Below, one piece after another: positions 4,966 through 25,003 of a DNA stretch of 32,000 bases. This DNA comes from Erysipelotrichaceae bacterium. Lineage in GTDB: Bacteria; Bacillota_I; Bacilli_A; Erysipelotrichales; Erysipelotrichaceae. Both the position numbers and the translations under genes were made by a program. The stretch covers positions 30,001 through 62,000 of the forward strand of contig JAUVVC010000001.1 in NCBI GenBank assembly GCA_030604855.1, in the 5' to 3' direction. The notes beneath the pieces are model-generated. The model had not been told where the DNA came from. It worked only from the letters and a program-made list of their open reading frames with translations, and searched no databases. Within the stretch, counting starts at the first letter, position 1. Each line of letters starts with the position of its first letter.

Positions 4966-5544
4966 ATGCAGAAGAAAAATCTAGCACAGCTTATTCTAGG
5001 GGATTGGAATACGAAGACAGTGGTTGGAGTCGCGATTGGTGCAGCGTTGTTTGGGGTCTTGATGGTCTATGGTGGGGTCAAAGTCTTCACGAATACCAAT
5101 CTGACCACAGCGATGTTGATTCCGGTCATTGTTGGGGCATTGTTTGGACCCGTACCGGCCTTGGTGGCGTGTTTCTTTGGAAATGTCATCGCCGATTTGA
5201 TCGGGGGTTGGGGTTTCTGGTTTGACTGGTCGATTGGCAATGGTGTCTTGGGCTTCTTCGTTGGCTTATTGCCGTTGTATGGCGCAGACATCAATAAAGG
5301 GGTCTTTACGGTTAAGCATGCCGTCATCTTTGCCTTGGTTGCCATCTTGGGCAATGCCTTGGCTTTTGGTGTCGTGACACCTTTGTTCACACTCTTGTTC
5401 TTTGGTGGAGAATTGAACATCACTTTCCTACAGTCCTTGACCGGTGGTGCTTCCAATGTCTTGGTTCTCACCGTATTGGGCATTCCTTTGTTGTTTGCTT
5501 TGGCGAAACGCAACGCAAGTTCACAAAATTTGGTCAAAGAATAA
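4966..5544 (+). CDS. ECF transporter substrate-specific (S) component, substrate unknown
   Basis: 192-aa, roughly 6-TM hydrophobic protein directly followed by ECF A-A' and T genes. The SD AAAGGAGAAAAGGGAA precedes the ATG. Confidence 0.8.
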   Translation: MQKKNLAQLILGDWNTKTVVGVAIGAALFGVLMVYGGVKVFTNTNLTTAMLIPVIVGALFGPVPALVACFFGNVIADLIGGWGFWFDWSIGNGVLGFFVGLLPLYGADINKGVFTVKHAVIFALVAILGNALAFGVVTPLFTLLFFGGELNITFLQSLTGGASNVLVLTVLGIPLLFALAKRNASSQNLVKE

Positions 5545-5545
5545 C

Positions 5546-7237
5546 ATGCATAAAGAACCCTTGATCGTCTTCGATCATTTCAGTTTCCGCTATGCTTCAC
5601 AACAGGTGGAAACCCTTAAAAACATTCATCTCACCATTTATAAAGGTGAGAAGGTTTTAATCATCGGTCAAAGCGGCAGTGGGAAGAGTACTTTGGTGCA
5701 TTGCATCAATGGTTTGATTCCCAATTCGTTCAAGGGCGAAATACGTGGATCGTGTACCGTTGCTGGCATGGATATCAGCCATGCCAGCATCTTTTCTTTG
5801 AGTAAACAAGTGGGTACGGTGCTTCAAGACTCCGATGCCCAGTTTGTCGCCTTGTGTGTAGGAGAGGATGTGGCCTTTGCCCTTGAAAATCAAGCGATTG
5901 AAAGAAAAGAAATGATCCCCTTGGTTAAGAAAGCGACGGATAAAGTCGGGATGTCTGATTTTTTGATGCAGGTGCCCTATACGCTTTCAGGTGGCCAAAA
6001 ACAGAAAGTTTCCTTGGCCGGTGTCTTGCACGAAAATGTGAGTATCCTGCTTTTTGATGAACCCTTGGCCAGCTTAGATCCCTTTTCGGGGATGCAAGCG
6101 ATTGAACTCATCGATGCGATCCATCAAGAAGATCGCACGGTCATCATTGTCGAGCATCGTTTGGAAGATGTCATGCATCGTGAGATCGATCGTGTCATTG
6201 TCATGCATGAGGGAGAGATCGTCTATGATGGGGATTTGAATGCTTTGTTAAAAGCAAATATTCTCATTCACTATGGACTGAGGGAACCCTTGTATCTACA
6301 GGCTTTGAATTATGCAAAGATCCCTTTCAGCACCTTTGAAGATGTGACTGACATAAAAAGAATGAATTTTAGTGCAGTTCAAGGTGAATTGAAATCATTT
6401 GTGCCAAAACAGCTCCATAAGCGAATTGATCGTTCTGAAGTACTTTTAACGGTTAAAGACATCCATTTTGCTTATGATGTGAAGCCGGTTCTCAAGGACA
6501 TCCATTTCACGGTTCATCGGGGTGAGCGACTGGCCTTTGTCGGGAAGAATGGGGCAGGTAAGAGTACGATGGCCAAACTATTGTGTGCTTTCGTCCGTCC
6601 AGAAAAGGGTTCGATTGAGTTGAGTGGAACGGATATCAAAGTCTTGACCATCAAAGAAGTGGGCCAAAGAATTGGCTACGTCATGCAGAACCCGAATCAT
6701 ATGATCGTCAAACATTTGATCAAAGATGAGGTACGTTTCGCTCTGGAAAATCAAAGTCTTACCAATGAACAGATCGATGATCGTGTCGAAGATGCCCTTA
6801 AGATCTGTGGCCTGCATTCCATGCGTAATTGGCCGGTATCCGCTGTCAGTTATGGTCAGCGCAAACGTATCACGGTTGCGGCAATCCTTGCTTTAAACCC
6901 AGATATCTTGATCTTAGATGAACCCACTGCCGGTCAGGATTATGCTCATTACTCTGAAATCATGGATTTCTTGGATCAGTTGAACAATGACCATGGCATC
7001 ACCTTCATCTTCATCACTCACGACATGCATCTGGCAATTGAATATACCGATCGAGCCTTGGTGTTTGCGGATGGGGAGTTGATCGCGGATGATGAGATTC
7101 AAGCCATATTGTCGAATCCAGACATCATTGAAAAAGCCAATCTCAAGCAAACATCCTTATATTACCTCGCACAAGCCTGTGGTATAGCGGTTGAACCCTT
7201 TATCCGTTCATTCATTGAACAACGGAGTCAAGCATGA
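5546..7237 (+). CDS. ECF transporter fused ATPase (EcfA-EcfA' duplicated ABC domains)
   Basis: Two ABC cassettes: Walker A GQSGSGKST and GKNGAGKST, signatures LSGGQKQKV and VSYGQRKRI, Walker B LLFDEP and LILDEP. ATG 5546 (MHKEPLIVFDHF) is preferred over the 5444 extension, which overlaps the S gene. Confidence 0.9.
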   Translation: MHKEPLIVFDHFSFRYASQQVETLKNIHLTIYKGEKVLIIGQSGSGKSTLVHCINGLIPNSFKGEIRGSCTVAGMDISHASIFSLSKQVGTVLQDSDAQFVALCVGEDVAFALENQAIERKEMIPLVKKATDKVGMSDFLMQVPYTLSGGQKQKVSLAGVLHENVSILLFDEPLASLDPFSGMQAIELIDAIHQEDRTVIIVEHRLEDVMHREIDRVIVMHEGEIVYDGDLNALLKANILIHYGLREPLYLQALNYAKIPFSTFEDVTDIKRMNFSAVQGELKSFVPKQLHKRIDRSEVLLTVKDIHFAYDVKPVLKDIHFTVHRGERLAFVGKNGAGKSTMAKLLCAFVRPEKGSIELSGTDIKVLTIKEVGQRIGYVMQNPNHMIVKHLIKDEVRFALENQSLTNEQIDDRVEDALKICGLHSMRNWPVSAVSYGQRKRITVAAILALNPDILILDEPTAGQDYAHYSEIMDFLDQLNNDHGITFIFITHDMHLAIEYTDRALVFADGELIADDEIQAILSNPDIIEKANLKQTSLYYLAQACGIAVEPFIRSFIEQRSQA

Positions 7238-8079
7238 AGCAGTTCGTCATCAATGTCACCCCGGGTCCAACTTTTCTTCACCACTTGAGTGGCAAGACCA
7301 AGGTCATGCTTTTCGGAACGTTCATCTTTTATACCTTGATGTCCTTTGATGTGCGTTTGCTTCTACCATTGTTCATTCTGTGTTTGGTCGCACTCATCAG
7401 TTTGAAACCCAATTGGAAAGTGGTCATCGCGCTCTTCACATTCATCTTCTTCATGAATCTGATCAATCTTGTTCTTTTTTGGTTGGTGGATCCGGATGTG
7501 GGTCAGTATTACACGACGGACACACGTACCATTCTGCTAAGCTTAGGAAATTTCTTCTTGAGTCGTGAAACCTTTTGGTATCTGTTGATTCGACAACTCA
7601 AATTAATGACCAGCTTCATGGTTTCCTTGACGTTTATCTTAGCCATCACACCATCTGAATTTGCGGCAGGTTTGTATGGCCTCGGTTTACCGTATAAAGT
7701 CTGTACGGTGGTTTCTTTGGCTTTCCGTTACATTCCAGATATCGCCAATGATTATGAAAACATCAAGATATCACTTCAAGCGCGTGGTTTGGAGATGGAT
7801 AAGCGTAAACTTAATCTCTTCAAGCGTTTGAAAGACAATCTTTTCATTTTATTGCCTTTGATCATCAGTTCATTTGATCGCATCGGGAATATTGCGAATG
7901 CCTTGGATCTTAGAGCCTATGGTTTATTGAAAAAGAGAACGTATTATGCTGAACATGAACCCACCAAGGCGGATCATGTCTTTCGTTTCATCGCGATTGC
8001 GGTTTTAGTGTTCAGTTTTGCTTGGATTGGATCACGGATGATCTGGCCTCCGGTCACACAAATGTGGACCCCCTTTTAA
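7234..8079 (+). CDS. ecfT: ECF transporter transmembrane (T) component, CbiQ/EcfT family
   Basis: ATGA overlap with the ATPase stop. It is a polytopic protein with the coupling-helix region SLQARGLE and ANALDLRAY (A-R-G / A-x-x-x-R motifs). Confidence 0.85.
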   Translation: MKQFVINVTPGPTFLHHLSGKTKVMLFGTFIFYTLMSFDVRLLLPLFILCLVALISLKPNWKVVIALFTFIFFMNLINLVLFWLVDPDVGQYYTTDTRTILLSLGNFFLSRETFWYLLIRQLKLMTSFMVSLTFILAITPSEFAAGLYGLGLPYKVCTVVSLAFRYIPDIANDYENIKISLQARGLEMDKRKLNLFKRLKDNLFILLPLIISSFDRIGNIANALDLRAYGLLKKRTYYAEHEPTKADHVFRFIAIAVLVFSFAWIGSRMIWPPVTQMWTPF

Positions 8080-8087
8080 GGAGCAAT

Positions 8088-9416
8088 ATGCTAAAGCTTG
8101 ATGAACTTCTTGAATTGTTAAGCATCAAAAGTGTGTATGATGAAGCGACGGTGACTGACGTTGAACCCTATGGGAAAGGCGTTGCCCAAGCCCTCGCATT
8201 CATGCGAGAACTGGCTTTGAAAAACAAGCTTGAAGTCAAGGAATACGAGGGACACGCGATCGCAATCTGCTTGGGGGACCAAGAAGAGCGTATTGATGTG
8301 GTCTCCCATCTGGATGTCGTATCCGCGGAGGATTGGGATGAAGATCCCTTCACACCACGGATCGTCAATGGTGAGATCATCGCACGTGGAACTCAGGACA
8401 TGAAAAGTGCAGCGTATCTGACGCTCAAGGCCTTGATTGAAATCAAAAAGAAGAAGATTCCACTACAACGTCAGCTTCGTATCGTGTTGGGTACGGATGA
8501 AGAGCGCACCATGGAAGACATGGTTCATTATGTCAAACAAGCTGGTCAACCGAAGTTTGCCTTTACCCCAGACGGGGCTTTCCCTCTTTCAATTGGAGAG
8601 AAAGGGGCACTCATGTGGCACATCAAAACTCAGATTGAAAGCCCGGTTCTTGAAATGAGGGGCGGAACACAATGCAATGTGATCGCACCCCATTGCACCT
8701 TCACTTTACCGCATGCCTTCAAAGGTTTGATTCACCAAACAACGGAAGCTCTTGACTTTGAAGTGAAGTGCGAAGAAGACCAGGAGCTTCTCCATTATAC
8801 CTTCACAGGCATTGCAGGTCATGCCTCACGTCCAGAAAGTGGACACAATGCGATTGTGGATGCCCTTCAAGTCTTAGCGCTCTGTTTCCCTAAAACAGCC
8901 TTTAAGAAGCTTTATGAGACCTTCGAAAGTCCTTATGCGAGAGGGACAACACTTGCTTATAATATTGAACCGATGGGACCTTTGACGCTCAATCTGGGTA
9001 TCTGTTCACTCCGAAATGGAGTTTTTGAGGCGGACGTGGATTGTCGCTACCCGTATGGGGTCACATCGGATGTTTTGACACAACACTTGACACAAGCATT
9101 ACCGGGTTTTGAGGTCAGCTTACCCTACGATGCCATTCCCATCTTGAATGACATCCAATCACCCTTTATTCAAACTTGTTTGAAGCATTATCGCGCAAAC
9201 TTCATTGATGATCGAGAACCCTTCATATCCGGAGGTGTGACGTATGCCAAGATCATTCAGCCTTGCATCGCCTTTGGACCGCTCTTACCGGGTCGGATCA
9301 GCTTGGCCCATCAGAAGAACGAATCGATTGCCATTGAAGATCTTGAACTTTTGTATCCCTTTTATCGGGATATCCTAATAAAACTTGCCAATTGTGAGGA
9401 GAACCAACATGCCTAA
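8088..9416 (+). CDS. M20 family metallo-hydrolase, PepV/Sapep-like dipeptidase
   Basis: ATG 8088 follows AAGGAG. The motifs SHLDVV, ARGTQDMKSA and LGTDEE match the metal-ligand and catalytic blocks of M20A dipeptidases. Confidence 0.8.
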   Translation: MLKLDELLELLSIKSVYDEATVTDVEPYGKGVAQALAFMRELALKNKLEVKEYEGHAIAICLGDQEERIDVVSHLDVVSAEDWDEDPFTPRIVNGEIIARGTQDMKSAAYLTLKALIEIKKKKIPLQRQLRIVLGTDEERTMEDMVHYVKQAGQPKFAFTPDGAFPLSIGEKGALMWHIKTQIESPVLEMRGGTQCNVIAPHCTFTLPHAFKGLIHQTTEALDFEVKCEEDQELLHYTFTGIAGHASRPESGHNAIVDALQVLALCFPKTAFKKLYETFESPYARGTTLAYNIEPMGPLTLNLGICSLRNGVFEADVDCRYPYGVTSDVLTQHLTQALPGFEVSLPYDAIPILNDIQSPFIQTCLKHYRANFIDDREPFISGGVTYAKIIQPCIAFGPLLPGRISLAHQKNESIAIEDLELLYPFYRDILIKLANCEENQHA

Positions 9417-10248
9417 AACCATCGTTTTTCAATCGGATTTCACCTACAAAGAAGGAGCTGTGGCAGCTATGTATGGGGTGGTCAAACAAGTCGATCCCAA
9501 CTTGGAGATCATCGATCTGACCCATGAGATTCCCAAGTTCGATATTTGGTCTGCTTCATTCAGACTGCACCAGGTTGTGCCTTTCTGGCCCAAAGGAACG
9601 GTCTTTGTCAGTGTCGTCGACCCAGGCGTGGGGACTTTCCGCAAAGCCTGTGTCGCAAAAACCAAGAGTGGTCAATGGGTTGTAACACCTGATAATAAGA
9701 CCTTGACGCATATTGCCAAATTCATTGGACTTGAAGAAGTTCGTGAGATTCCAGCCCATCTTCGTTTCGCATCGCCGTATAAGACGGCCGTCTTTCATGG
9801 TCGTGATGTCTTTGGTTATGTCGGTGCACTGCTTGCGAGTGGTCAAAAGAAGTTCGAAGAAATCGGTGAAGTTTACACGGATTATCAAACTTATGACTTG
9901 GAAGAACCACGAATTGAAGGGGATAAGCTTGTTGGCATCGTAGAGATCTTGGACCCTAATTTTGGAAATGCCTGGACCAATATTCCCATCACCTGGGCGA
10001 AGCAAGTTGGGATTGAGTTCAATGATCTGGTAGAAATCGATATCTATGAGAAAGAACGTTTAGCTTTACAGTTAATCGTCCCTTATAAAGCAACATTTGG
10101 GGGTGTGCATGTGAATGAAGCGGTGATGTATGCGAATGAATTGGAGTGTTTGGCACTTGCCATCAATCAGAATTCATTCATCAACACCTATCACATCCAT
10201 CAAGGTCCAGACTGGTGCATCTGCATCAAGAAGGCAAGTTATGTCTAA
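9409..10248 (+). CDS. S-adenosyl-L-methionine hydroxide adenosyltransferase (DUF62, fluorinase/chlorinase superfamily), paralog 1
   Basis: ATG 9409 follows GAGGAG and overlaps the M20 gene by 8 nt. The protein has FQSDFTYKEGAVAAM, VSVVDPGVGTFR and FHGRD, so the Asp71/Arg78/His130 triad is present. Confidence 0.85.
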   Translation: MPKTIVFQSDFTYKEGAVAAMYGVVKQVDPNLEIIDLTHEIPKFDIWSASFRLHQVVPFWPKGTVFVSVVDPGVGTFRKACVAKTKSGQWVVTPDNKTLTHIAKFIGLEEVREIPAHLRFASPYKTAVFHGRDVFGYVGALLASGQKKFEEIGEVYTDYQTYDLEEPRIEGDKLVGIVEILDPNFGNAWTNIPITWAKQVGIEFNDLVEIDIYEKERLALQLIVPYKATFGGVHVNEAVMYANELECLALAINQNSFINTYHIHQGPDWCICIKKASYV

Positions 10249-11086
10249 GATCTTAGTCCTGCAATCAGACTTTGGAATCGTGGATGGGGCTGTGAGTGCG
10301 ATGATTGGGGTTGCCTTAAGTGTCGATGATTCCTTGAAGATTTTTGACTTGAGTCACTCGATTTCACCTTTCAATATTCATGAAGCATCCTATCGTTTAC
10401 TCCAATCCTTGCAATACTGGCCAGAAGGTTCGGTGTTTGTGAGTGTCGTAGACCCAGGGGTAGGATCGAAACGCAATTCAGTTGTGGTTCGTACACGTGA
10501 GAATCATATTGTAGTGACCCCAAACAATGGGACACTCTCGCATTTGAAGAAGTTTATCGGTATTGAAGAAGTCTTTGAAGTGGATGTGGCGAAACATCGT
10601 CGCAAAGGTGCCAGCAATCAATCGTATACCTTTGATGGTCGTGATTTATATGCCTATATCGGTGCACGTTTGGCTTGTGGGCAACTATCCTTAAATGACG
10701 TAGGACCAAAACTGAGTGAAGATCAAATCATATCCTTTGAACTTCCCGAATCGCTTGTCGAAAATGATTCTGTCAAAGGAAGTGTGGAGATTTATGATGA
10801 GCGTTTCGGTAGTTTATGGACGAGCATCTTGGTAGAGGATTTCAATCAATTAGACCCAAAGTATGGTGATCGTTTCAAAGTCGAAATCAAACATGAAGGC
10901 ATCTCATACCTTGATGAGTCTGTTCTATATGGCCGTGCTTTCAATGATGTGCATGTGCATGATTTGATTCTCTATGTGAATTCATTGAATCGCGTTGCTT
11001 TGGCCTTGAATCAAGATTCTTTGGTCAAGAAGTATGGAATTGGTTTAGGACTGGATTGGACCATAAGCATCACACCCATTCGTTAA
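10241..11086 (+). CDS. SAM hydroxide adenosyltransferase family (DUF62), paralog 2 with altered triad
   Basis: ATG 10241 overlaps the stop of paralog 1 (ATGTCTAA). The protein has LQSDFGIVDGAVSAM and VSVVDPGVGSKR, but FDGRD replaces FHGRD, so the triad His is Asp132. Confidence 0.8.
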   Translation: MSKILVLQSDFGIVDGAVSAMIGVALSVDDSLKIFDLSHSISPFNIHEASYRLLQSLQYWPEGSVFVSVVDPGVGSKRNSVVVRTRENHIVVTPNNGTLSHLKKFIGIEEVFEVDVAKHRRKGASNQSYTFDGRDLYAYIGARLACGQLSLNDVGPKLSEDQIISFELPESLVENDSVKGSVEIYDERFGSLWTSILVEDFNQLDPKYGDRFKVEIKHEGISYLDESVLYGRAFNDVHVHDLILYVNSLNRVALALNQDSLVKKYGIGLGLDWTISITPIR

Positions 11087-14494: not shown

Positions 14495-14713
14495 ATGAGT
14501 ATCAGTTTTAGAGTCAGTTCTGAAGAAGAAAAACAAATTCGTAATTATGCACAGTTTAAAGGCGTTAGTATAAGCACTTTGATAAAAGAAGCTGTTTTCG
14601 ATCAAATGGAAACGGAGCTTGATCTAATGACATTTAAAGCGATGAAAGATAATCCAAGCTCAGAGCCAAGTGTTTCTCTTGATGAGCTTAAGCGAATGTT
14701 AGATATTGAATGA
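14495..14713 (+). CDS. relB: Type II antitoxin, RelB/DinJ-like ribbon-helix-helix
   Basis: The ATG follows GAGGTG. MSISFRVSSEEEKQIRNYAQFKGVSISTLIKEAV is a typical RHH N-terminus. The gene overlaps the toxin gene by 4 nt (ATGA). Confidence 0.75.
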   Translation: MSISFRVSSEEEKQIRNYAQFKGVSISTLIKEAVFDQMETELDLMTFKAMKDNPSSEPSVSLDELKRMLDIE

Positions 14714-14955
14714 TATATACAGTTCGATTTAGTGTGGACTTTGCGAAGCAAATGAAGAAGCTCGATCCCTATCAAGCTAAATTGATTGTAGCTTGGATTG
14801 ACAAACATTTGGTCAATCAAGATCCCAGGTCTACAGGTAAAGCATTAACCGCAAACTACAAAGGGTCATGGCGATATCGTGTTGGCGATTATCGTATTCT
14901 TGCGGAAATCATTGATGATGAACTTGTTTTGCACTTGTTAATGGTCACACATTGA
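14710..14955 (+). CDS. relE: Type II toxin, RelE/StbE family (C-terminally short)
   Basis: GSWRYRVGDYRILAEIIDDELVLHLLMVTH matches the RelE/ParE-superfamily core. It ends directly after the His that normally precedes the R-x-x-x-Y tail. Confidence 0.75.
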   Translation: MIYTVRFSVDFAKQMKKLDPYQAKLIVAWIDKHLVNQDPRSTGKALTANYKGSWRYRVGDYRILAEIIDDELVLHLLMVTH

Positions 14956-14956
14956 A

Positions 14957-14984
14957 GCCAAGCCACTCGATGAGCTTGGTTTTT
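14957..14984 (+). terminator. Rho-independent terminator after the TA pair
   Basis: GCCAAGC-cactcgatga-GCTTGGT followed by TTTT. Confidence 0.7.
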
Positions 14985-15079
14985 ATATGAGCAAACGCTC
15001 ATATTAGTATTGATATTCCTGTGAAAAGTGCTATATTATATATGAATGATTGCTCAAGTGTTCATTCGTTGGAGGAAAT

Positions 15080-15442
15080 ATGACAGATAAAGAACGTATT
15101 GAAGTCTGTGATTGTGATGTCATCCACCGTGATGTGGTGGAATCTGCACAGAAACAAATGCCCCAAGATGAAAAGCTCTTTGATTTAGCAGAGTTCTTTA
15201 AGGTGTTTGGAGATTCCACACGTATTCGCATCCTTTGGGCTCTTGAAGATCGTGAGATGTGTGTTTGTGACATCGCGTATCTTTTAAACATGACCCAATC
15301 TGCAATCTCCCACCAACTCCGTTCCTTGAAACAAGTTAACTTGGTCAAGAATCGCAGGGAAGGAAAAGTTGTGTATTACTCCCTCAAAGATGAACACATT
15401 AAGCAGATCTTTGATATCGGTATGGAACACATTACCGAGTAG
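15080..15442 (+). CDS. cadC: ArsR/SmtB family metalloregulator, CadC-like
   Basis: ATG 15080 follows GGAGGAAAT. It has an N-terminal VCDCDV Cys pair and the alpha-3 EMCVCDIAYLL motif, then SAISHQLRSLK (HTH) and YYSLKDEHIKQI, closely paralleling pI258 CadC as I recall it. Confidence 0.8.
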   Translation: MTDKERIEVCDCDVIHRDVVESAQKQMPQDEKLFDLAEFFKVFGDSTRIRILWALEDREMCVCDIAYLLNMTQSAISHQLRSLKQVNLVKNRREGKVVYYSLKDEHIKQIFDIGMEHITE

Positions 15443-15453
15443 AAAGCATCACT

Positions 15454-17802
15454 ATGGAAAAAGAAATTCTATTAGAAGGCTTGGACTGTGCCAACTGTTC
15501 AGTCAAAATTGAAAAAGAAGTCAATGCCCTAGAAGGGGTAGAGGCGAACATAAATCTAGTGACAAAGACTTTGCGTCTGAAAACTACTATAAATCACGAT
15601 GAACGTGAACTTTTTGAACAGGTTAAGTCCATTGTGCATAAACATGAGCCGGATGTGGATGTGATCGATAAACACGCATCCAAAGCGATTGAAATCGAAG
15701 CGACTTTGGAAGGTTTAAGTTGTGCAAATTGTGCTGCAAAGATCGAGAAAGCGATTCAAGCTTTGGATGGATTAGACAATGTATCCATTGATTTCGTTTC
15801 AAAGAAGCTTCGTTTCACTACGATGAATGAGAAACAGATACAGCAGATTCACGCTCAAGTGGAAGGAATCGTACATACCATTGAACCGGATACGAAATAC
15901 ATCTTGAAACATGAACAGAAGTCTAGTCTTCAGCGTGCTTTCGATTTGAAACAATTGGGTAAACATCAGTTCAATCAAATCATACGCTTTGGGACAGGCA
16001 TCCTGTTCTTTGTGTCAGGGCTTTTCATCAAAGAACCACCGCTCTTGGAATTGAGTCTATTTCTTATCGCCTATGTGATTGTTGGGGGCGATATCATTCG
16101 TAAAGCTTTTCAAGGTGTGTTAAATAAACAATTCTTCAGTGAGAATTTCTTAATGACCATTGCCACAACCGGAGCGTTTATCGTTGGTGAGTATCCGGAA
16201 GGGGTAGGTGTCATGTTGTTTTACTTGGTGGGTGAGTTTTTCCAAGACTTGGCCGTTGATCATTCACGTAATTCGATTCAAGATCTCATGGATATCCGTC
16301 CGGATACAGCCAACCTTGTACAAGGAGATCGAATTCTTTCCGTTTCTGCGGAAAGTGTTCAAGTCCATGACATCATCCTAGTGCGTCCTGGTGAGAAAGT
16401 CCCTTTGGACGGAAGAATCATCGAAGGCTCCAGCAGCTTTGATACATCACATTTGACCGGTGAGTCCTTACCAAGAGATGTGACTGTAGATGATCAAGCC
16501 TTGGGTGGTTTCGTGAATCTCAGTGGAGTCATCAAAATCAAAGTATCCAAGCCCTTTGCGGAATCGACCGTTGCGAAGATTTTGGATTTGGTTCAAAACG
16601 CAAGCAGTCGTAAAGCCAAGACGGAACAATTCATCACGCGCTTTGCGATGGTTTATACGCCCATCGTTGTGTTTGGAGCACTGGCCTTGGCCTTTATTCC
16701 ACCTTTATTGATTCCAGGCGCAAGCCTTTATGATTGGTTCTATCGTGCGATGATCTTCTTGGTCATCTCATGTCCGTGTGCCTTGGTCATCTCCATACCA
16801 CTGGGTTTCTTTGGTGGTGTAGGTGGTGCTTCCAAGCGCGGAATTCTGGTAAAGGGAAGTAATTATCTCGAAGCGCTTCGTAAAGTCAAAACCATCGTCT
16901 TCGATAAAACAGGGACCTTAACCGAAGGAAAGTTCAGTGTTCATAAGATCATAGCAGAAGATGGCTATTCAGAAGATGAAATCTTAAGGGTAGCGGCGCA
17001 TGCGGAAAGTCATTCTACCCACCCGATCGCAAGTTCAATAAAGAAAGCGTATCGTGGTCGAATTGATTTGAATTTGGCTACAGAGATTAAAGAGTTAGCG
17101 GGTTTGGGTGTTACGATCCATTATGATGGAAAGATAATTCATGTTGGGAATCATCGTTTGATGGATTCCATTGGTTTACAGATTCCAAAACAAGCTGTTT
17201 TAGGGACTTTGATTCATGTGGCGATCGATCATGCATATGCGGGTTCCATATTAATCGCCGATACCATTAAAAAAGAAGCCAAACAAGCCATTACGGATCT
17301 TAAGCAAATGGGTATCCGTACGATACTCTTAAGTGGTGATTTGAAAGGCATTGCAAGCCAAGTTGCCTCAGACTTAGGAATTGATGAAGTCCACGCGGAA
17401 CTCTTACCTCAGGATAAAGTCGCTATTTTCGAACAACTCAATATGAGTAATAAAGATAAGACTGCTTTTGTCGGGGATGGCATCAACGATGCGCCAGTCT
17501 TGGCACGTGCGGATATCGGCATTGCGATGGGTGGTTTGGGATCGGATGCGGCGATTGAAGCCGCAGACATCGTCATCATGAATGATGAACTCACGCAAGT
17601 CGTCACCGCCATGAAGATTGCCAATAAGACACATACGATTGTCTACCAAAATATCGTCTTTGCTTTAGGTGTCAAGGCTATCTTCTTAGTACTGGGTGCC
17701 TTTGGTTTAGCCTCGATGTGGGAAGCCGTCTTTGCGGATACGGGTGTCGCTTTGATTGCGATTGCCAATGCGATGCGTGTCATGCGTACACGTAAACTTT
17801 AA
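15454..17802 (+). CDS. cadA: P1B-type heavy-metal (Cd/Zn/Pb-type) translocating ATPase with two N-terminal HMA domains
   Basis: Two CANC metal-binding domains (GLDCANCSVKIE, GLSCANCAAKIE), SCPCALV (CPC) in the membrane, DKTGTLT phosphorylation site, TGES, and the GDGINDAP hinge. Confidence 0.9.
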   Translation: MEKEILLEGLDCANCSVKIEKEVNALEGVEANINLVTKTLRLKTTINHDERELFEQVKSIVHKHEPDVDVIDKHASKAIEIEATLEGLSCANCAAKIEKAIQALDGLDNVSIDFVSKKLRFTTMNEKQIQQIHAQVEGIVHTIEPDTKYILKHEQKSSLQRAFDLKQLGKHQFNQIIRFGTGILFFVSGLFIKEPPLLELSLFLIAYVIVGGDIIRKAFQGVLNKQFFSENFLMTIATTGAFIVGEYPEGVGVMLFYLVGEFFQDLAVDHSRNSIQDLMDIRPDTANLVQGDRILSVSAESVQVHDIILVRPGEKVPLDGRIIEGSSSFDTSHLTGESLPRDVTVDDQALGGFVNLSGVIKIKVSKPFAESTVAKILDLVQNASSRKAKTEQFITRFAMVYTPIVVFGALALAFIPPLLIPGASLYDWFYRAMIFLVISCPCALVISIPLGFFGGVGGASKRGILVKGSNYLEALRKVKTIVFDKTGTLTEGKFSVHKIIAEDGYSEDEILRVAAHAESHSTHPIASSIKKAYRGRIDLNLATEIKELAGLGVTIHYDGKIIHVGNHRLMDSIGLQIPKQAVLGTLIHVAIDHAYAGSILIADTIKKEAKQAITDLKQMGIRTILLSGDLKGIASQVASDLGIDEVHAELLPQDKVAIFEQLNMSNKDKTAFVGDGINDAPVLARADIGIAMGGLGSDAAIEAADIVIMNDELTQVVTAMKIANKTHTIVYQNIVFALGVKAIFLVLGAFGLASMWEAVFADTGVALIAIANAMRVMRTRKL

Positions 17803-18175: not shown

Positions 18176-19018
18176 TTAGTTTGATGTATTTACGGTAACA
18201 ACTTTCCCATCAAGCTGAGCACCAGCCTCGATACTTATTGAAGTGCAAAATAAATCTCCTTTTACTACTGCAGATTTCTTCAAAACGATGCTTTCACTTG
18301 CTTTGACTTCACCATTTACTTCTCCAGAAATCTCTACTCGCTTAGCTTCCACATTGCCAAATACTTTTGTTTGATTATTAGCTTCAAAGGTTTCAATAAC
18401 AGAAATATTGCCTTTTAATTCAGATCCACTACATTTGACAGACTTCGCTTGTATGTTTCCTTCAATTATCGAACCAAAATTAACCTCAACAGTATCTTTG
18501 CAGTTAATATCACCCAGAATTTTACCGTTTACTATTAATGAAGTTTCTAATTCCATATTTCCATTCACGACCATCGTATTACTAATTACTGCAATCTCTT
18601 TTGATGCCCCGACATTACCATTTAAACTCATTTCATTTTCCTCTTCTTGTCCCTTTTGGTTAGTTTTGTTTGTTTTATTATCTGCTTTATAATGAGTAAT
18701 CGATTCCCAAACATTTTTCTTTTTGATAGTATCCTCCTTACTGTTTATGGCTGTATCTTCAACTAATTTTGTCTTGATAGGCTCATTCGTTTTAGTTTCT
18801 AAATCTGCAGAATCCAACTCAGCTGCATCATTTGATTTAAAAACAATAAATGGGAAATTATTACCTAACACAGAGATTGTTTTCTTCTCAACATTCTTTT
18901 GATTATCAACTTTCTGATTAGTAATTTCAATGTCTTCAAACTTATCTTCTACGACCTGAAGCAGATTTGATTTTCTTTGATTTTCTAAGTTTTTAGGAAG
19001 TTTTTTATACTTATTCAA
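18176..19018 (-). CDS. Bactofilin-domain (polymer-forming cytoskeletal) protein with a long K/N/E-rich N-terminal extension
   Basis: The C-terminal 140 aa form a beta-helical repeat (VVNGNMELETSLIVNGKILGDI...VEISGEVNGEVKA...VVKGDLFCTSISIEAGAQLDGKV) typical of PF04519. TTG 19018 lies 8 nt after AAAGGAG and is preferred over GTG 19042. Confidence 0.75.
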   Translation of the reverse strand: MNKYKKLPKNLENQRKSNLLQVVEDKFEDIEITNQKVDNQKNVEKKTISVLGNNFPFIVFKSNDAAELDSADLETKTNEPIKTKLVEDTAINSKEDTIKKKNVWESITHYKADNKTNKTNQKGQEEENEMSLNGNVGASKEIAVISNTMVVNGNMELETSLIVNGKILGDINCKDTVEVNFGSIIEGNIQAKSVKCSGSELKGNISVIETFEANNQTKVFGNVEAKRVEISGEVNGEVKASESIVLKKSAVVKGDLFCTSISIEAGAQLDGKVVTVNTSN

Positions 19019-19157
19019 GATAGATGCTCCTTTCAAGTTCACATTTTTCGAACTATTTGTTTGATAATCTCTGTATCTTATGGAGTTGAAATATAACCCA
19101 ACTCTTTTTAAACCTATAAGTTCTGAATTAGCTGTTCGGTAGGTTTCAACTCTTGAT

Positions 19158-22100
19158 TCAAAGATTTAGTAAAGCGTTTAATAGAATCTCGCTTAAGTCC
19201 CTTAATACTTCTAATTCATTTTTAGAGTAGATATGTTTGTCTCGAACAGAGTCAAAACCTATAAATCCGTAACACGCATTGTTGAACATCATTGGCAAGG
19301 TAAGCAGACTTCTTACTTCTTGAGGTTCGAGGATTAATCTCACTGCTGACTCTGGGTCAAGAAGTTCCACATCAGGGATAAAGATTGTCTCTCCAACAAT
19401 GTGGGCATTTGCCCAATCAATAATGTTGCCTAATGGTATCTTTTGAAGTGCCTCGATTTGAGGTGTTATACCTGGTGAACACCATTCGTACGTATTTGAG
19501 CAGGTGGATTCTGTCCAGTCATATTTAAAAATGTATACTCTATCAGCCTTTACAACCGTTCCAATTAACTTAAGTGATTTGCTTATCAACTTTTGATAGT
19601 CAGATTTGTCTGATCTAATGAACTCGGATGCGATTTTTAATAGTATTTTATCTATCGTTTGATCATATATTCCTTGATCAACTATAGTTGCATCAATATA
19701 GTTAAGAGGGAACTTAGAACTTAGTTCCGAAACATGTTTGAAGTATTTTTGATCTTCTTCGAAAAAGTGATGTTTTAAGATATCAAATTCAAGAACAGAT
19801 AAGAATTCTAATACAGTAATGTTATTTGATTTATACTGATCATAATAATCGTAGATCGTTCTTACTAACTTCTTATGAATAGAATGGTGTTCTTTATAGT
19901 TGATATACTTAGTTGCTTCAAGTATCTCCACTTCGTCAGTGAAGTGTCTTCCGATTTTTATCAAAAGGTTATCTAGATGATAAGTAAGTTCAATTGAATC
20001 TATAGTTCGACCTTCAAGCAATTTTCTCAAGTCATATAGTTGTGCGATGAGTTCTTGGTGTTGATGATCGATGATTCTGTTGCCAGAATTCCATTCCACT
20101 TTCCAATAATTTTTCAATTCCTTATTCTCAAATATATGTTTACTCACTGGTAGGAAATTAATATCTTTCGCTGCATGATAATAAAGTTTAAAGTCTATTA
20201 GCCTTAATGGCTTCGAAAACAGATATCCTTGTATACTATCAGGTCTTAATTCGCTTAAGATTTTGAATTGATTTAATGTTTCAACACCTTCAATCGTAAC
20301 TTCTAGATTTAAACCGTGGAGAATAGAAATAATTGCTTCAACAATTTTCAGCGACTTCTGATCACTTTCAATTGAGCTTATTAAAGAACGATCGATCTTA
20401 ACAATGTCAAGAGGGAGCATTCTAAGATAAGCAAATGAAGAATATCCAGTTCCAAAGTCATCAAGTGCTAGACTTAATCCAAGCTCTCTTAAGCGATTGA
20501 ATACTTTAATCACCTCTATACTATCCTGTACTAAACTAGACTCTGTTACTTCTAGTTTTAGCCGCTTAGGATTGATTCCGCTTCTATTGAGTTCATATTT
20601 CAGGCAATTATATAGTTCGTCTTTTCGATCAGATATTGCTATGAATGAAAGATTTATACTTATAGACAAGAGTCCAAACTTTGATTCATCCCAACTTGCC
20701 AATTTTGAACACGTCTCGTGTATGACCCAGTCTGTAATGGGTATAATCAACTTTGTCTTTTCTGCTATTGGGATGAACTCAATCGGAGAAATAACTCCCA
20801 ATTTGGGGTGATTCCATCGTAACAACGCTTCAGCTTGATCAACCATCCCTGACTGAACATTGAAAATTGGTTGGTAATATAGCTCCAATTCTTGCTTATC
20901 AAGTGAGTTTCGTAAGTCTTTCTCAAGGAGTAATTCTCGTTCAATTTTAGATGCTAAAATGGAAGTGTATTGAACATATGTATTTTTTTGTTGTTTAGCT
21001 ACTCCTAAAGCCAATTTAGCATTTCGCAAAAGATCTTTATCATAAAGCGATTTATCTATGATTTCATATCCCATACTGGCATATAAGATTTGTATTCTCT
21101 CATTTATCAATATTTGTGTAGATATTGCTCTCCTTAACAAATCCATATATTCTACGACTTCAGTTTTAGTGTGTTTATTCAGTATAACTACAAATTCATC
21201 GCCTGCATAATAAAAAATAAAGCCATTTTGATCCGTCACTTCTTTTATTCTTTGTGCTACTTGTGCAAGGATAACATCTGCTGAATAGTAGCCAATTTCA
21301 TTGCTCAACTTTCCGAAATCATCTAGATCTATGTAGATAACAGTAAATTTGTTTAAAAGCTCAGTATTTGAGATTATGCTTTCTTCAAATAAGCGTAATG
21401 CTGTTTTGTTTTTAAGCCCAGTAACTGAATCATGCAAATATAGATACTCAATTCTTTCTTTATTCATTTTTTGATCATTAATGTTCTGAATTTGAATGAT
21501 AACAGACTGTTCATTTTCAAACTCTATTGAGCTTGCTGATATGGATGCCCAATATTTTTCATGTTTGGTGTTATAAAGCTCAAGCTCGAAATTATATAGT
21601 AGTCCATTTTTTCTAATTTCACCTATTAGATAATCTGCTTGTTCTGAGTTAACTAAATAATCATCAACATTTATTTTAATGAGGTCTCTTTTTGATAACT
21701 CGAAGTCATGAATTGCGCGAGCATTTGCATATTTGACCACCTTTTCTTTACTGCTCAAAATTAAGATAGGATAGGGTGTATTATCGAGCATTCTCCTATA
21801 TTCGGAATTTTTAGATGCTTCCTCAATGATTTTACGAGTAGTAATATCGTAATGGCTTCCAGCCATTTTTAATGGTTTCCCGTAAACGTCATACTCGATT
21901 ATTTTCCCGCGATCTAGAACCCAAACCCATTTTCCACTTTTATGTCGCATACGAGCTTCAGACTCGTAAATGTCCCTTTGGTTACGAAAATAGAGATCAA
22001 GATTCATTTCAGATTTTTTAAAATCCTCACTGTGAACTAGATTTTTCCATGTCTCAATTGTGGTAGGTTGCAACTCATCTAGTTTATACCCAACAATTCC

Positions 22101-22223
22101 AGCCCATCTTTCATCGAATTTGGTCTCACCTGTAAGTACATTCCATTCCCAATTTCCGACAGTAATGCTTTCGTTAGCTGTATCGAAGTAGTAGATATCA
22201 GTGTTTAAGTACTCGTTTTTCAT
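19158..22223 (-). CDS. Multidomain c-di-GMP protein: PAS-PAS-GGDEF(degenerate AGDEF)-EAL-hemerythrin-GAF
   Basis: Approximate domain spans are PAS aa 20-130 and 140-250, GGDEF 258-420, EAL 440-680, hemerythrin 705-835 and GAF 855-1021. The GGDEF A-site is YYAGDEF. The EAL domain has YQPI, EALLRW, LEVTES, DDFGTGYSS, KIDRS, EGVET and QGYLFSKP. The hemerythrin has IDHQH, HFTDE, HHSIH and HHFFEED. Confidence 0.9.
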   Translation of the reverse strand: MKNEYLNTDIYYFDTANESITVGNWEWNVLTGETKFDERWAGIVGYKLDELQPTTIETWKNLVHSEDFKKSEMNLDLYFRNQRDIYESEARMRHKSGKWVWVLDRGKIIEYDVYGKPLKMAGSHYDITTRKIIEEASKNSEYRRMLDNTPYPILILSSKEKVVKYANARAIHDFELSKRDLIKINVDDYLVNSEQADYLIGEIRKNGLLYNFELELYNTKHEKYWASISASSIEFENEQSVIIQIQNINDQKMNKERIEYLYLHDSVTGLKNKTALRLFEESIISNTELLNKFTVIYIDLDDFGKLSNEIGYYSADVILAQVAQRIKEVTDQNGFIFYYAGDEFVVILNKHTKTEVVEYMDLLRRAISTQILINERIQILYASMGYEIIDKSLYDKDLLRNAKLALGVAKQQKNTYVQYTSILASKIERELLLEKDLRNSLDKQELELYYQPIFNVQSGMVDQAEALLRWNHPKLGVISPIEFIPIAEKTKLIIPITDWVIHETCSKLASWDESKFGLLSISINLSFIAISDRKDELYNCLKYELNRSGINPKRLKLEVTESSLVQDSIEVIKVFNRLRELGLSLALDDFGTGYSSFAYLRMLPLDIVKIDRSLISSIESDQKSLKIVEAIISILHGLNLEVTIEGVETLNQFKILSELRPDSIQGYLFSKPLRLIDFKLYYHAAKDINFLPVSKHIFENKELKNYWKVEWNSGNRIIDHQHQELIAQLYDLRKLLEGRTIDSIELTYHLDNLLIKIGRHFTDEVEILEATKYINYKEHHSIHKKLVRTIYDYYDQYKSNNITVLEFLSVLEFDILKHHFFEEDQKYFKHVSELSSKFPLNYIDATIVDQGIYDQTIDKILLKIASEFIRSDKSDYQKLISKSLKLIGTVVKADRVYIFKYDWTESTCSNTYEWCSPGITPQIEALQKIPLGNIIDWANAHIVGETIFIPDVELLDPESAVRLILEPQEVRSLLTLPMMFNNACYGFIGFDSVRDKHIYSKNELEVLRDLSEILLNALLNL

Positions 22224-22270
22224 TATGAAACCTTTCTTAATTATTTATTAATACGCTAGTTGATAGCAAA

Positions 22271-22360
22271 TAAAAAACACCTACTTGGGAACTGGCTGCC
22301 ATTTTAAAGGCCCTATAGTTTTGCGTCCAATGCTTTCGCACTGTTTGCCTTTTTCTTCAA
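22271..22360 (-). promoter_or_regulatory. c-di-GMP-I (GEMM-I) riboswitch candidate in the 5' leader of the GGDEF-EAL gene
   Basis: The minus-strand RNA reads GAAGAAAAAGGCAAACAGUGCGAAAGCAUUGGACGCAAAACUAUAGGGCCUUUAAAAUGGCAGCCAGUUCCCAAGUAGGUGUUUUUU. GGCAAAC, a 6-bp hairpin capped by GAAA, GGACGCAAA and AUGGCAGCCAGUU parallel the conserved blocks of Vc2 (GGCAAACCAUUCGAAAGAGUGGGACGCAAAGCC...) as I recall them. Confidence 0.75.
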
Positions 22361-22799
22361 TGTTGACAGAATATAACGAACAAATGTTTCAAATAATTAT
22401 TCAAGAAAATCAATGCAATCGGAATGTGGTTACTTTGACTATATTCAAAATACTTAATCTTCTTACATTATTTCATGACTCCTATTACATTTCAAGAAAA
22501 ATATTAGTACTTATTATCATAAAGTTGTTTATCCTTGTGAGATATGATGTTCTTCAATAAAAATATTGTTTTGCGTTAATGTTGATTTAATGCTCTCATA
22601 CTACTGGCAAATTGCTTATTGTGTTTCGTACAAATCTCATATGAAGATATACCACTGATTAGAATTTGGTGGAATTCTATTTTTTATAACATATTATTTT
22701 TGAATATGGATGCTAATAGAAATAGTTGTTTTAATTAATGCACTTAAGTACCACTAATTAATAATAAGTGCTAATATCAAATCACAAAGGGAAATATTT

Positions 22800-23579
22800 A
22801 TGGAAACTAAATTCAAAAAACTCATTCGTTTCAATCTTATCATGGGCTTCTTTCATTTGATTCAAGGCATCGCCATGTTGTTCTTGGCAACTTCTGTCAT
22901 CCAGAAAATCGGTGAATTCCAACCCAGCATCGTTCAGTTCTATCAGACCTTCAATCCAATGACACGATCACTTGAAGTCACTTCGAAAGTCTTGTTCGAT
23001 TTACCATTCGGTATCTTGGTCGCATCTTTTCTCTTGATCTCAGCGATTGCACATGGCTTGATCGTTCTAAACAAAGACCGTTATATTGCGGATCTGAAAA
23101 TCGGTCTCAATCGCTTCCGTTGGTTCGAATACGCTTTGAGCTCATCGATCATGATCGTCTTGATCGCAACCTTGTTTGGCATCTATGACATCGCAAGTTT
23201 AGCTTTGATCTTCATCGTCAATGCATCCATGAATCTATTTGGTTTGGATATGGAAGAATTGAATGCAGGCTTCACCAAAGGCAAAGTCAACTGGGGGCCC
23301 TTCATCTGGGGTTCATTGGCGGGCATCGCACCTTGGATCGCCATCTTCTTGTACATGACCGGAACCGGTAATTACGATCAAGTGCCTTGGTTCGTATGGG
23401 CAATCGTAGGTACATATTTTGTCGCCTTCAACACCTTCCCAATAAACATGATCGCTCAATACTTGAAATTGGGTAAGTGGAAAGATTACCTCTATGGTGA
23501 GCGTTTCTACATCATCCTCAGCTTGGCAGCGAAGTCCATCCTGGCTTGGCTTGTCCTCTTTGGTGCCATGCAACCTTAA
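22800..23579 (+). CDS. Heliorhodopsin
   Basis: 259-aa, 7-TM protein. NRFRWFEYALSSSIMIVLIA, VNASMNLFG and GERFYIILSLAAKSILAW closely parallel heliorhodopsin 48C12 (IFRWVEYSLSSSVMIVLIA, VNASMILFG, GERAYIVLSLVAKSALAW). Lys245, Glu110, His19 and His85 are all present. SD AAAGGGA lies 7 nt before the ATG. Confidence 0.9.
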   Translation: METKFKKLIRFNLIMGFFHLIQGIAMLFLATSVIQKIGEFQPSIVQFYQTFNPMTRSLEVTSKVLFDLPFGILVASFLLISAIAHGLIVLNKDRYIADLKIGLNRFRWFEYALSSSIMIVLIATLFGIYDIASLALIFIVNASMNLFGLDMEELNAGFTKGKVNWGPFIWGSLAGIAPWIAIFLYMTGTGNYDQVPWFVWAIVGTYFVAFNTFPINMIAQYLKLGKWKDYLYGERFYIILSLAAKSILAWLVLFGAMQP

Positions 23580-23600
23580 CGACCTGCAGGTCGTTTTTTT
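23578..23600 (+). terminator. Rho-independent terminator after the heliorhodopsin gene
   Basis: AACGACC-tgca-GGTCGTT followed by TTTTT, immediately after the stop codon. Confidence 0.8.
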
Positions 23601-23641: not shown

Positions 23642-25003
23642 ATGCTTGATATCAAAAAAGAGAATCGTTTCATCCTGGGAATCTTGATTCCCATCATCTT
23701 AGAAAATGTGTTATTGACCTTATCCAGTCTAGTCATCACCGGATATGTTGGGCGATTATTAATTTTGGAAATCTCCGCCCAAGGCGTGGCCAATCGCCTG
23801 TATGGGATTTATTTCTCGGTATTCAAAGGTTTGGCGATTGGTTTGATGGTGCTTGCGGCACGACACTTTGGCAGTGGACGATTGGATCGGTGTCGTATTG
23901 TTCAAGCACGTGCGATGGCAATGATTTTACCCTTATCACTTTTATCTTCACTTTTGATGTTTGTTTTTCGTACCGACTTTTTTCGGTTGATCACTCAAGA
24001 TGTTCAAATCTTGGACTTGGCATCGCGCTATTTTCAGATCTCGGTGTTGGGTTTTCCTTTTGTGGCGATCACCGCACTGAATACCGCTGCATTTCAAGCA
24101 CAGGGTAATACTCGTAGACCTTTGTATATTGCGGCATTCGGGAATTTATTCAATATCATCATCGGGTATGTATTGATTTTTGGGACGGTATGGACACCTG
24201 CTTTAGGCTTAAAAGGGGCTGCGATTTCTCTCATCAGTTCACAAATATTAAGTGCGAGTCTGGGCTTATGGGGTCTCTATAGCACGAAAATTGGATTGTT
24301 TAAGGATACCGTAAAAGTATCTGTTCAATCGATGTTCGATCGTTTTGAGAACGGACGGATCTTGGCAACAGGAGTACCGGCAGCGTTTGAGAATACCTTC
24401 TGGCAATTCGCAACCTTGATCATCTCACGTGTCATCATCGCTTATGGGACCGCACATTATGCGGCTTATCAGATGGGGCTTCAAGCAGAAGGTTTAAGTG
24501 AAATGTTGTCAGTTGGTTTCGTAACGGCATCCATCAGTTTGGCATCGATCGCGATTGGGAAGCAGGATGATGCTCTATTCAAGTTCTACTTCAAACGTTT
24601 GACGCAGTTGAGTCTAGTGATCAGTACAATCACCATGACGCTCTTGTTTTTCTTTGCGGAGAATTTAATGGGCTTATTGACGGATAAAGGCGAATTGATT
24701 CAAATCGGAACCCTGTATCTTAAAATCATGGCAGGATCTCAGATCCCTCAAAACATGTCAAAAGTCTTGAACGGCTTCATCCGTTCATCGGGTTATAAAA
24801 CCGTTCCGATGTTGGTCAGTTTCACAGGCTTATGGTTGGTTCGTGTACCTTTGAGTTTATTGGCTCAAAGTGTCCTGGGTTGGGATATCGTAACCATATG
24901 GTGGATCATCAATTTAGACCAATGGGTACGATTCTCAATCAGTTTGACCGTCTTCTTAAAAGCTAAGTTATATGATGCGATTCAAGCTCAAGCTTTGGCT
25001 TGA
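23642..25003 (+). CDS. MATE family efflux transporter
   Basis: ATG 23642 (MLDIKKENRFILGILIPIILEN) is a typical MATE N-terminus. The protein has about 12 TM segments. The upstream extension in ORF 23546 crosses the terminator and is rejected. Confidence 0.85.
   Translation: MLDIKKENRFILGILIPIILENVLLTLSSLVITGYVGRLLILEISAQGVANRLYGIYFSVFKGLAIGLMVLAARHFGSGRLDRCRIVQARAMAMILPLSLLSSLLMFVFRTDFFRLITQDVQILDLASRYFQISVLGFPFVAITALNTAAFQAQGNTRRPLYIAAFGNLFNIIIGYVLIFGTVWTPALGLKGAAISLISSQILSASLGLWGLYSTKIGLFKDTVKVSVQSMFDRFENGRILATGVPAAFENTFWQFATLIISRVIIAYGTAHYAAYQMGLQAEGLSEMLSVGFVTASISLASIAIGKQDDALFKFYFKRLTQLSLVISTITMTLLFFFAENLMGLLTDKGELIQIGTLYLKIMAGSQIPQNMSKVLNGFIRSSGYKTVPMLVSFTGLWLVRVPLSLLAQSVLGWDIVTIWWIINLDQWVRFSISLTVFLKAKLYDAIQAQALA

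Follow-up and report, generated by a model that had tools for sequence, protein, structure and literature searches.

The window, the whole 32,000-nucleotide stretch of DNA analysed here, encodes what is very probably a stand-alone, functional heliorhodopsin with a slow green-light photocycle and a partner encoded elsewhere, belonging to a widespread clade of Firmicutes and Chloroflexi that includes TfHeR of Trichococcus flocculiformis. Judging from the family at large, the protein would reside in the membrane with its N-terminus inside, bind all-trans retinal at K245 with E110 as counterion, and pump no ions. Green light would set off a slow photocycle that changes the cytoplasmic loops and thereby modulates a partner protein, probably encoded elsewhere in the genome, as the locus itself offers no name for it. 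Transcription would start from a short conserved promoter region of its own and end at its own terminator.

Identity, relatives and transcription of the heliorhodopsin gene

The initial annotation had described an intact 259-aa product resembling heliorhodopsin 48C12 over its full length and had proposed a search with the Pfam family. The protein matches PF18761 (Heliorhodopsin) from end to end (residues 8-257 against profile positions 1-242 of 242; 301.7 bits versus a cut-off of 26.7, E=4.4e-90) and the NCBIfam equivalog NF038020 'heliorhodopsin HeR' with 275.8 bits versus a cut-off of 100. Furthermore, a phmmer search against the PDB retrieved TaHeR (6is6, E=7.8e-53), the eukaryotic Cv06 (9vfc, 1.5e-50) and 48C12 (6su3, 7.3e-44), with the 48C12 alignment spanning residues 5-259. 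Together these matches confirm both parts of that description. H19, E110 and K245 correspond to H23, E107 and K241 of 48C12, respectively, and H85 to the histidine in the 'salfHfiv' stretch, which we take to be H80. None of the four varies in a clade alignment of 25 sequences. The earlier identification of the retinal lysine, the glutamate counterion and both histidines was correct, as were the codon coordinates given for K245 and E110 (Table 1).

Assuming an N-in orientation, with helix boundaries taken by homology, the predicted cytoplasmic loops contain 13 Lys and Arg residues versus three in the extracellular loops, which is the pattern expected of the inverted, N-in topology under the positive-inside rule. 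An AlphaFold2 model computed from the clade alignment of 25 sequences had low confidence (mean pLDDT 58) because this alignment is shallow (76-85% identity); the fold is settled by the sequence matches to solved heliorhodopsins, to which the model adds no support. Comparison of the window with its three close relatives (L003-L005, see below) yielded a dN/dS of 0.02-0.04 at a dS of ~0.5-0.6, the same range as for the adjoining MATE gene, so the heliorhodopsin is under strong purifying selection. The protein possesses every defining trait of the heliorhodopsin family that can be read from its sequence. Within that known family it is ordinary, and a standard annotation pipeline would name the gene correctly.

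An identical protein is encoded on two short public contigs (L001 and L002). Three further genomes labelled Erysipelotrichaceae, L003 (UBA8511), L004 and L005, encode heliorhodopsins with 97-98% identity, and their flanking genes are 92-100% identical. Since the closest genomes are labelled Erysipelotrichaceae, and thus Bacillota, the host is a monoderm, in agreement with the earlier assignment. In total, 4335 database proteins matched at E<=0.001; the best 120 of these 4335 are all at least 76% identical, and several of the 120 are already named "heliorhodopsin HeR" by NCBI. A literature search for heliorhodopsins in Erysipelotrichaceae found nothing relevant. The window protein adds an uncharacterised member to a heliorhodopsin clade found very widely among environmental Firmicutes and Chloroflexi. 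Near-identical and 80%-identical copies are already public. Beyond correct annotation, the importance of the gene is small.

For synteny comparisons we used 80 genome loci whose heliorhodopsins are 73-98% identical to the window protein, with the taxonomy of MAG contigs taken from the labels as deposited. These labels, which cover both MAGs and isolates (L003-L082), comprise Erysipelotrichia, Clostridia, Bacilli (Trichococcus, Jeotgalibaca), Acholeplasma, Anaerolineae, Dehalococcoidia and Eggerthellales, with heliorhodopsins at least 73% identical throughout. Cross-phylum pairs reach 89-90% identity, for example L018 (Anaerolineaceae) with L035 and L046 (both Clostridia), and at each locus the GC content of the heliorhodopsin gene tracks that of its flanks (0.29-0.58). 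This combination of cross-phylum identity and flank-like GC content points to old horizontal spread followed by amelioration, to very strong constraint, or to mis-binned contigs. For many of the relatives, the MAG names (AnMBR, HGW) suggest anaerobic reactors and groundwater, as read from the names only. A light function is not obvious in such habitats, which counts against our preferred explanation.

The gene had been described as monocistronic, with its own Shine-Dalgarno (SD) sequence and terminator, a view supported by upstream conservation and by a kept terminator stem. The last ~62 bp before the ATG are ~90-92% identical to L003-L005 versus 73-76% at third codon positions, and we infer that the conserved stretch is the promoter/operator region of the heliorhodopsin. 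Within it, the inverted repeat GCACTTA-N18-TAAGTGC is kept in all three relatives despite the coding dS of ~0.5-0.6, and it may serve as an operator for some regulator. Further copies that could indicate a regulon were sought across the window and none was found, with 0 expected by chance. A consensus scan of the conserved stretch did not call a full sigma-70 site. At the 3' end, the terminator stem is kept in the same relatives and the loop is variable.

A common operator upstream of the heliorhodopsins was sought in 81 loci; no motif is shared, and each sub-lineage has its own palindromes. Two loci of one Erysipelotrichaceae sub-lineage (L049 and L051) contain a Fur-box-like sequence, TGATAATGATTATCT, 67 bp upstream of the heliorhodopsin with 14 of 15 matches to TGATAATNATTATCA. 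This site is found in those two loci only and is absent from the window. A PerR-like site occurs, weakly, upstream of one heliorhodopsin among the 81 loci (L078).

Table 1. Coordinates of the heliorhodopsin unit and adjoining features in the window.
Feature	Position	Strand	Details and basis
Low-GC accessory segment	17804..22717		4.9 kb; composition and absence from L003/L005; outside the heliorhodopsin unit
Bactofilin-domain gene	18176-19042	-	288 aa
PDE gene	19158-22223	-	1021 aa; PAS-PAS-GGDEF(AGDEF)-EAL-hemerythrin-GAF; Pfam domains
c-di-GMP-I riboswitch RF01051	22284-22359	-	64.5 bits versus gathering score 35
Conserved promoter-proximal region of heliorhodopsin	22734..22799	+	Conservation versus L003-L005
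Inverted repeat GCACTTA-N18-TAAGTGC	22740-22771		Perfect 7-bp arms; overlaps extended -10-like TGCTAATAT
Extended -10-like TGCTAATAT	22769-22777	+	Read from sequence
SD AAGGGA	22787-22792	+	~7 nt before heliorhodopsin ATG; read from sequence
Heliorhodopsin gene	22800..23579	+	ATG start, 259 aa; ORF list and profile matches
H19 codon	22854-22856	+	Conserved His pair
H85 codon	23052-23054	+	Conserved His pair
Counterion E110 codon	23127-23129	+	48C12 alignment
Schiff-base K245 codon	23532-23534	+	48C12 alignment
Heliorhodopsin intrinsic terminator	23578..23595	+	7-bp stem with 4 GC pairs, then TTTTTTT
MATE efflux transporter gene	23642-25003	+	Follows heliorhodopsin; Pfam/NCBIfam match

Characterised relatives and retinal supply

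The closest characterised relative is TfHeR (T. flocculiformis DSM 2094, locus L072), a member of the same clade with 77% identity over the full length, the same retinal lysine, counterion and histidine pair, and likewise a monoderm Firmicute host. TfHeR absorbs at 542 nm, shows no ion pumping and binds the class II CPD photolyase of its own operon, raising repair activity about three-fold in a light-dependent manner; binding needs R162 and K227, with E97 assisting (PMC9769723). By analogy, the window protein could bind a class II CPD photolyase encoded elsewhere, enhance repair and extend it to green light. The high identity to TfHeR speaks for such a role, as do the retention of K227 (K223 here), the conservative replacement of E97 (D93 here) and the fact that photolyase is the only light-related neighbour family to recur in the clade, occurring within ±4 genes at 8 of 81 loci, including Trichococcus loci and L034. 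None of these eight lies in the window lineage, however, and R162 corresponds to F158, a position that varies across the 25-sequence clade alignment, so that an essential TfHeR contact residue is lost in the window protein. Furthermore, the TfHeR operon combines the class II CPD photolyase with DUF2238, both of which are absent from the window; a scan of 33 ORFs there (all non-overlapping ORFs of at least 80 aa, minus one over the riboswitch and one nested in a homoserine dehydrogenase gene) detected no member of the photolyase family. The window protein also differs from TfHeR by a 3-residue deletion in the cytoplasmic B-C loop. The type of heliorhodopsin that assists a photolyase is recognised by a nearby photolyase and by the R162 and K227 contacts; the window has neither the nearby photolyase nor the complete contact set. 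A photolyase partnership like that of TfHeR is thus possible but weakened, and we regard it as unlikely for this protein.

Likeness to the structurally solved TaHeR, 48C12 and Cv06 extends to the FG-loop motif GKWxxYLxGE and to the fenestration residues F168, G175, F210 and N211, all of which are kept. The extracellular A-B loop of the window protein is 7 residues longer than those of TaHeR and 48C12. P214 is shared with Cv06, whereas TaHeR and 48C12 have Ala at this position, and M217 stands where 48C12 has Q213.

The initial annotation had noted that crt and blh genes are lacking in the window, and the scan of the 33 ORFs bears this out, as carotenoid- and retinal-synthesis families were sought and none was found. 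Judging from heliorhodopsin-bearing Firmicutes in general, uptake from the environment is the most likely source of retinal here, possibly of a xanthophyll antenna too. Genes for retinal synthesis may also lie elsewhere in the genome. A lateral fenestration motif has been proposed to bind carotenoids (bioRxiv 10.1101/2025.11.27.691015), and its residues F168, S172, G175, F210, N211 and P214 are all present in the alignment with structural homologues, so the window protein would be compatible with the idea of a carotenoid antenna.

The downstream exporter and clade-wide gene neighbourhoods

Two other heliorhodopsins have reported partners, with AbHeR regulating glutamine synthetase (PMC9529153) and OcHeR regulating the OmrDE ABC transporter (PMC11109279). 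They are likened to the window protein by common family membership and by a presumed light-dependent regulation through protein-protein contact that involves no ion transport. Both share an operon with their partner, whereas the window heliorhodopsin is monocistronic and has neighbours that are kept only within its own lineage. Ten recurrent groups of operon partners have been described, including glutamine synthetase, an ABC transporter, MerR and DUF2177/DUF2238 (PMC11109279). None of these ten families flanks the window heliorhodopsin, as judged from the Pfam domains of its neighbours. Nor does the arrangement of the locus correspond to the operon-partnered type, since the upstream neighbour is divergent and the MATE gene stands behind a terminator with a -10 element of its own.

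The gene that follows the heliorhodopsin does encode a MATE exporter, as stated in the initial annotation, which also entertained an interaction between the two proteins. In this model, the heliorhodopsin would regulate the exporter in a light-dependent manner, comparable to the up-regulation of OmrDE by OcHeR, which provides a precedent for the control of a drug exporter by a heliorhodopsin (PMC11109279). In the window, L001 and L003-L005, the MATE gene has the same orientation as the heliorhodopsin gene and follows it after 62 bp. Between the two genes, however, are the kept terminator and, after it, a separate TATAAT for the MATE gene that is conserved in the window and L003-L005. In addition, the ten recurrent neighbour groups do not include MATE (PMC11109279), and a MATE homologue was not found near the heliorhodopsin in any of the 76 loci beyond the window lineage. 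MATE adjoins the heliorhodopsin only in the lineage of the window, L001 and L003-L005, as does EamA at the loci where its homologues are neighbours. A light-dependent link to the exporter is therefore improbable, and a heliorhodopsin acting apart from its neighbours, with a partner encoded elsewhere, remains the preferred reading.

In the wider clade, the immediate neighbours of the heliorhodopsin, 140 in all, were counted over the 76 loci beyond the window lineage (heliorhodopsins 74-85% identical). They belong to 124 Pfam families; the most frequent of these is counted 6 times, and GGDEF twice. Within ±4 genes, the commonest neighbour family is a DEAD-box helicase (10 of 81 loci), which is syntenic in one sub-lineage. 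From this scatter of neighbour families it follows that neither the PDE upstream of the window heliorhodopsin nor the MATE exporter is a conserved partner. The absence of any conserved neighbour in 81 loci, despite 74-100% identity and strong purifying selection, fits a partner-independent role as well as a partner whose gene lies elsewhere. Gene context is unlikely, on its own, to resolve what heliorhodopsins do in this clade, for which physiological partners are known in a minority of hosts.

Several minor associations were seen among the neighbours. At locus L058, the heliorhodopsin gene is followed after 259 bp by a PAS-PAS-GGDEF-HD-GYP gene in the same orientation (L058:6837-9203); beyond the window lineage, just one other c-di-GMP enzyme was found as an immediate neighbour. 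Porphyrin- or haem-related neighbours occur at low frequency, namely a TspO/MBR protein (L006:1837-2229) and, at four loci, a SOUL haem-binding protein. DUF2238, DUF2177, Cdd1/DUF4332 helix-hairpin-helix proteins and SelO also recur beside heliorhodopsins of the clade.

The divergent c-di-GMP gene and its low-GC segment

Upstream of the heliorhodopsin and divergent from it, the window encodes a large PDE whose domains, together with the RF01051 match, confirm the initial description of a riboswitch-controlled hemerythrin GGDEF-EAL protein. The covariance model is covered completely (positions 1-87 of 87), and the riboswitch lies 60 nt upstream of the PDE start codon. The two genes were also said to share a 576-bp control region. 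The size of the gap is right (22224-22799), but most of it is island DNA and only the last ~82 bp are common to all four genomes.

The PDE, its riboswitch and a bactofilin-domain gene lie in a segment of distinct composition. Its GC content is 32.5% versus 42.7% for the remaining window, and the GC profile runs at 30-35% from ~17800 to ~22800 and at ~43% elsewhere, including the heliorhodopsin. GC3 of the bactofilin and PDE genes is 0.26-0.29 versus 0.43-0.57 for neighbouring genes. Homology to L003 and L005 stops at the stop codon of a P-type ATPase gene (17803) and resumes at 22718 (L003) or 22705 (L005), leaving 82-95 bp up to the heliorhodopsin ATG. In place of the segment, both genomes have a ~450-bp gap with a small membrane-protein ORF of ~85 aa. 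The segment is present in L004 and lies at the edge of the short contigs L001 and L002, so that it is missing from two of three separately assembled genomes of close relatives with 97-98% identical heliorhodopsins. From the GC content and the alignment breaks, we conclude that the PDE, riboswitch and bactofilin gene form an accessory segment that took the place of a small gene in some members of the lineage. Genomes with and without it do not differ in the heliorhodopsin, in its proximal regulatory region or in the level of constraint. The comparative data show that the adjacency of heliorhodopsin and PDE is recent and dispensable; it stems from gain or loss of the accessory segment, and a functional module is not supported.

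These results bear on the suggestion, offered as speculation in the initial annotation, that the heliorhodopsin and the hemerythrin GGDEF-EAL protein work together as a photo-oxidative-stress or lifestyle-switch module; light sensing would then feed into c-di-GMP turnover. In both the window and L004, the two genes adjoin each other in divergent orientation, the unrelated L058 has its GGDEF-HD-GYP gene close downstream of a heliorhodopsin, and heliorhodopsins have been proposed as oxidative-stress switches, with PAS and histidine-kinase genes near them and "less frequently GGDEF and EAL" (PMC8612252). Against this, the PDE belongs to a segment without counterpart in L003 and L005, whose heliorhodopsins are nevertheless almost identical and equally constrained, and the proximal regulatory region is unchanged whether or not the PDE is there. 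The initial annotation had made conservation of the c-di-GMP neighbourhood in other genomes a test of the idea, and with c-di-GMP enzymes as immediate neighbours in 2 of 76 loci, the neighbourhood is essentially not conserved. The two GGDEF proteins among 140 immediate neighbours correspond, by a rough estimate, to about chance level in Firmicutes, and a literature search for a link between heliorhodopsin and c-di-GMP did not find one. The tie between light sensing and the adjacent O2/c-di-GMP sensor is therefore most improbable. As the adjacency arises from segment gain or loss, it is unusable as guilt-by-association evidence for heliorhodopsin function.

A narrower version, in which heliorhodopsin and PDE have become newly coupled in the segment-bearing strains only (window, L001/L002 and L004), with light and oxygen converging on c-di-GMP, deserves equally little credence and would, if true, amount to a recent, lineage-specific rewiring of heliorhodopsin output.

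A 91-aa ORF between the PDE and the heliorhodopsin (22285-22560, plus strand) was considered as a gene and rejected because of its overlap with the minus-strand riboswitch. A terminator-like hairpin with a T-run (CCACTGATTAGAATTTGGTGG, 22652-22672, plus strand) is present at the right edge of the low-GC segment and has no plus-strand gene upstream of it.

Elsewhere in the window, the region 4966-11086 encodes an ECF-type transporter (S component, fused double ATPase and CbiQ-like T component), followed by an M20 peptidase and two tandem SAM hydroxide adenosyltransferase paralogues (PF01887/PF20257). In the region 14710-17802, an 81-aa ORF for a ParE-family toxin precedes the genes for an ArsR-family regulator and an HMA-domain P-type heavy-metal ATPase, and the 3' end of this ATPase gene forms the left boundary of the low-GC segment.
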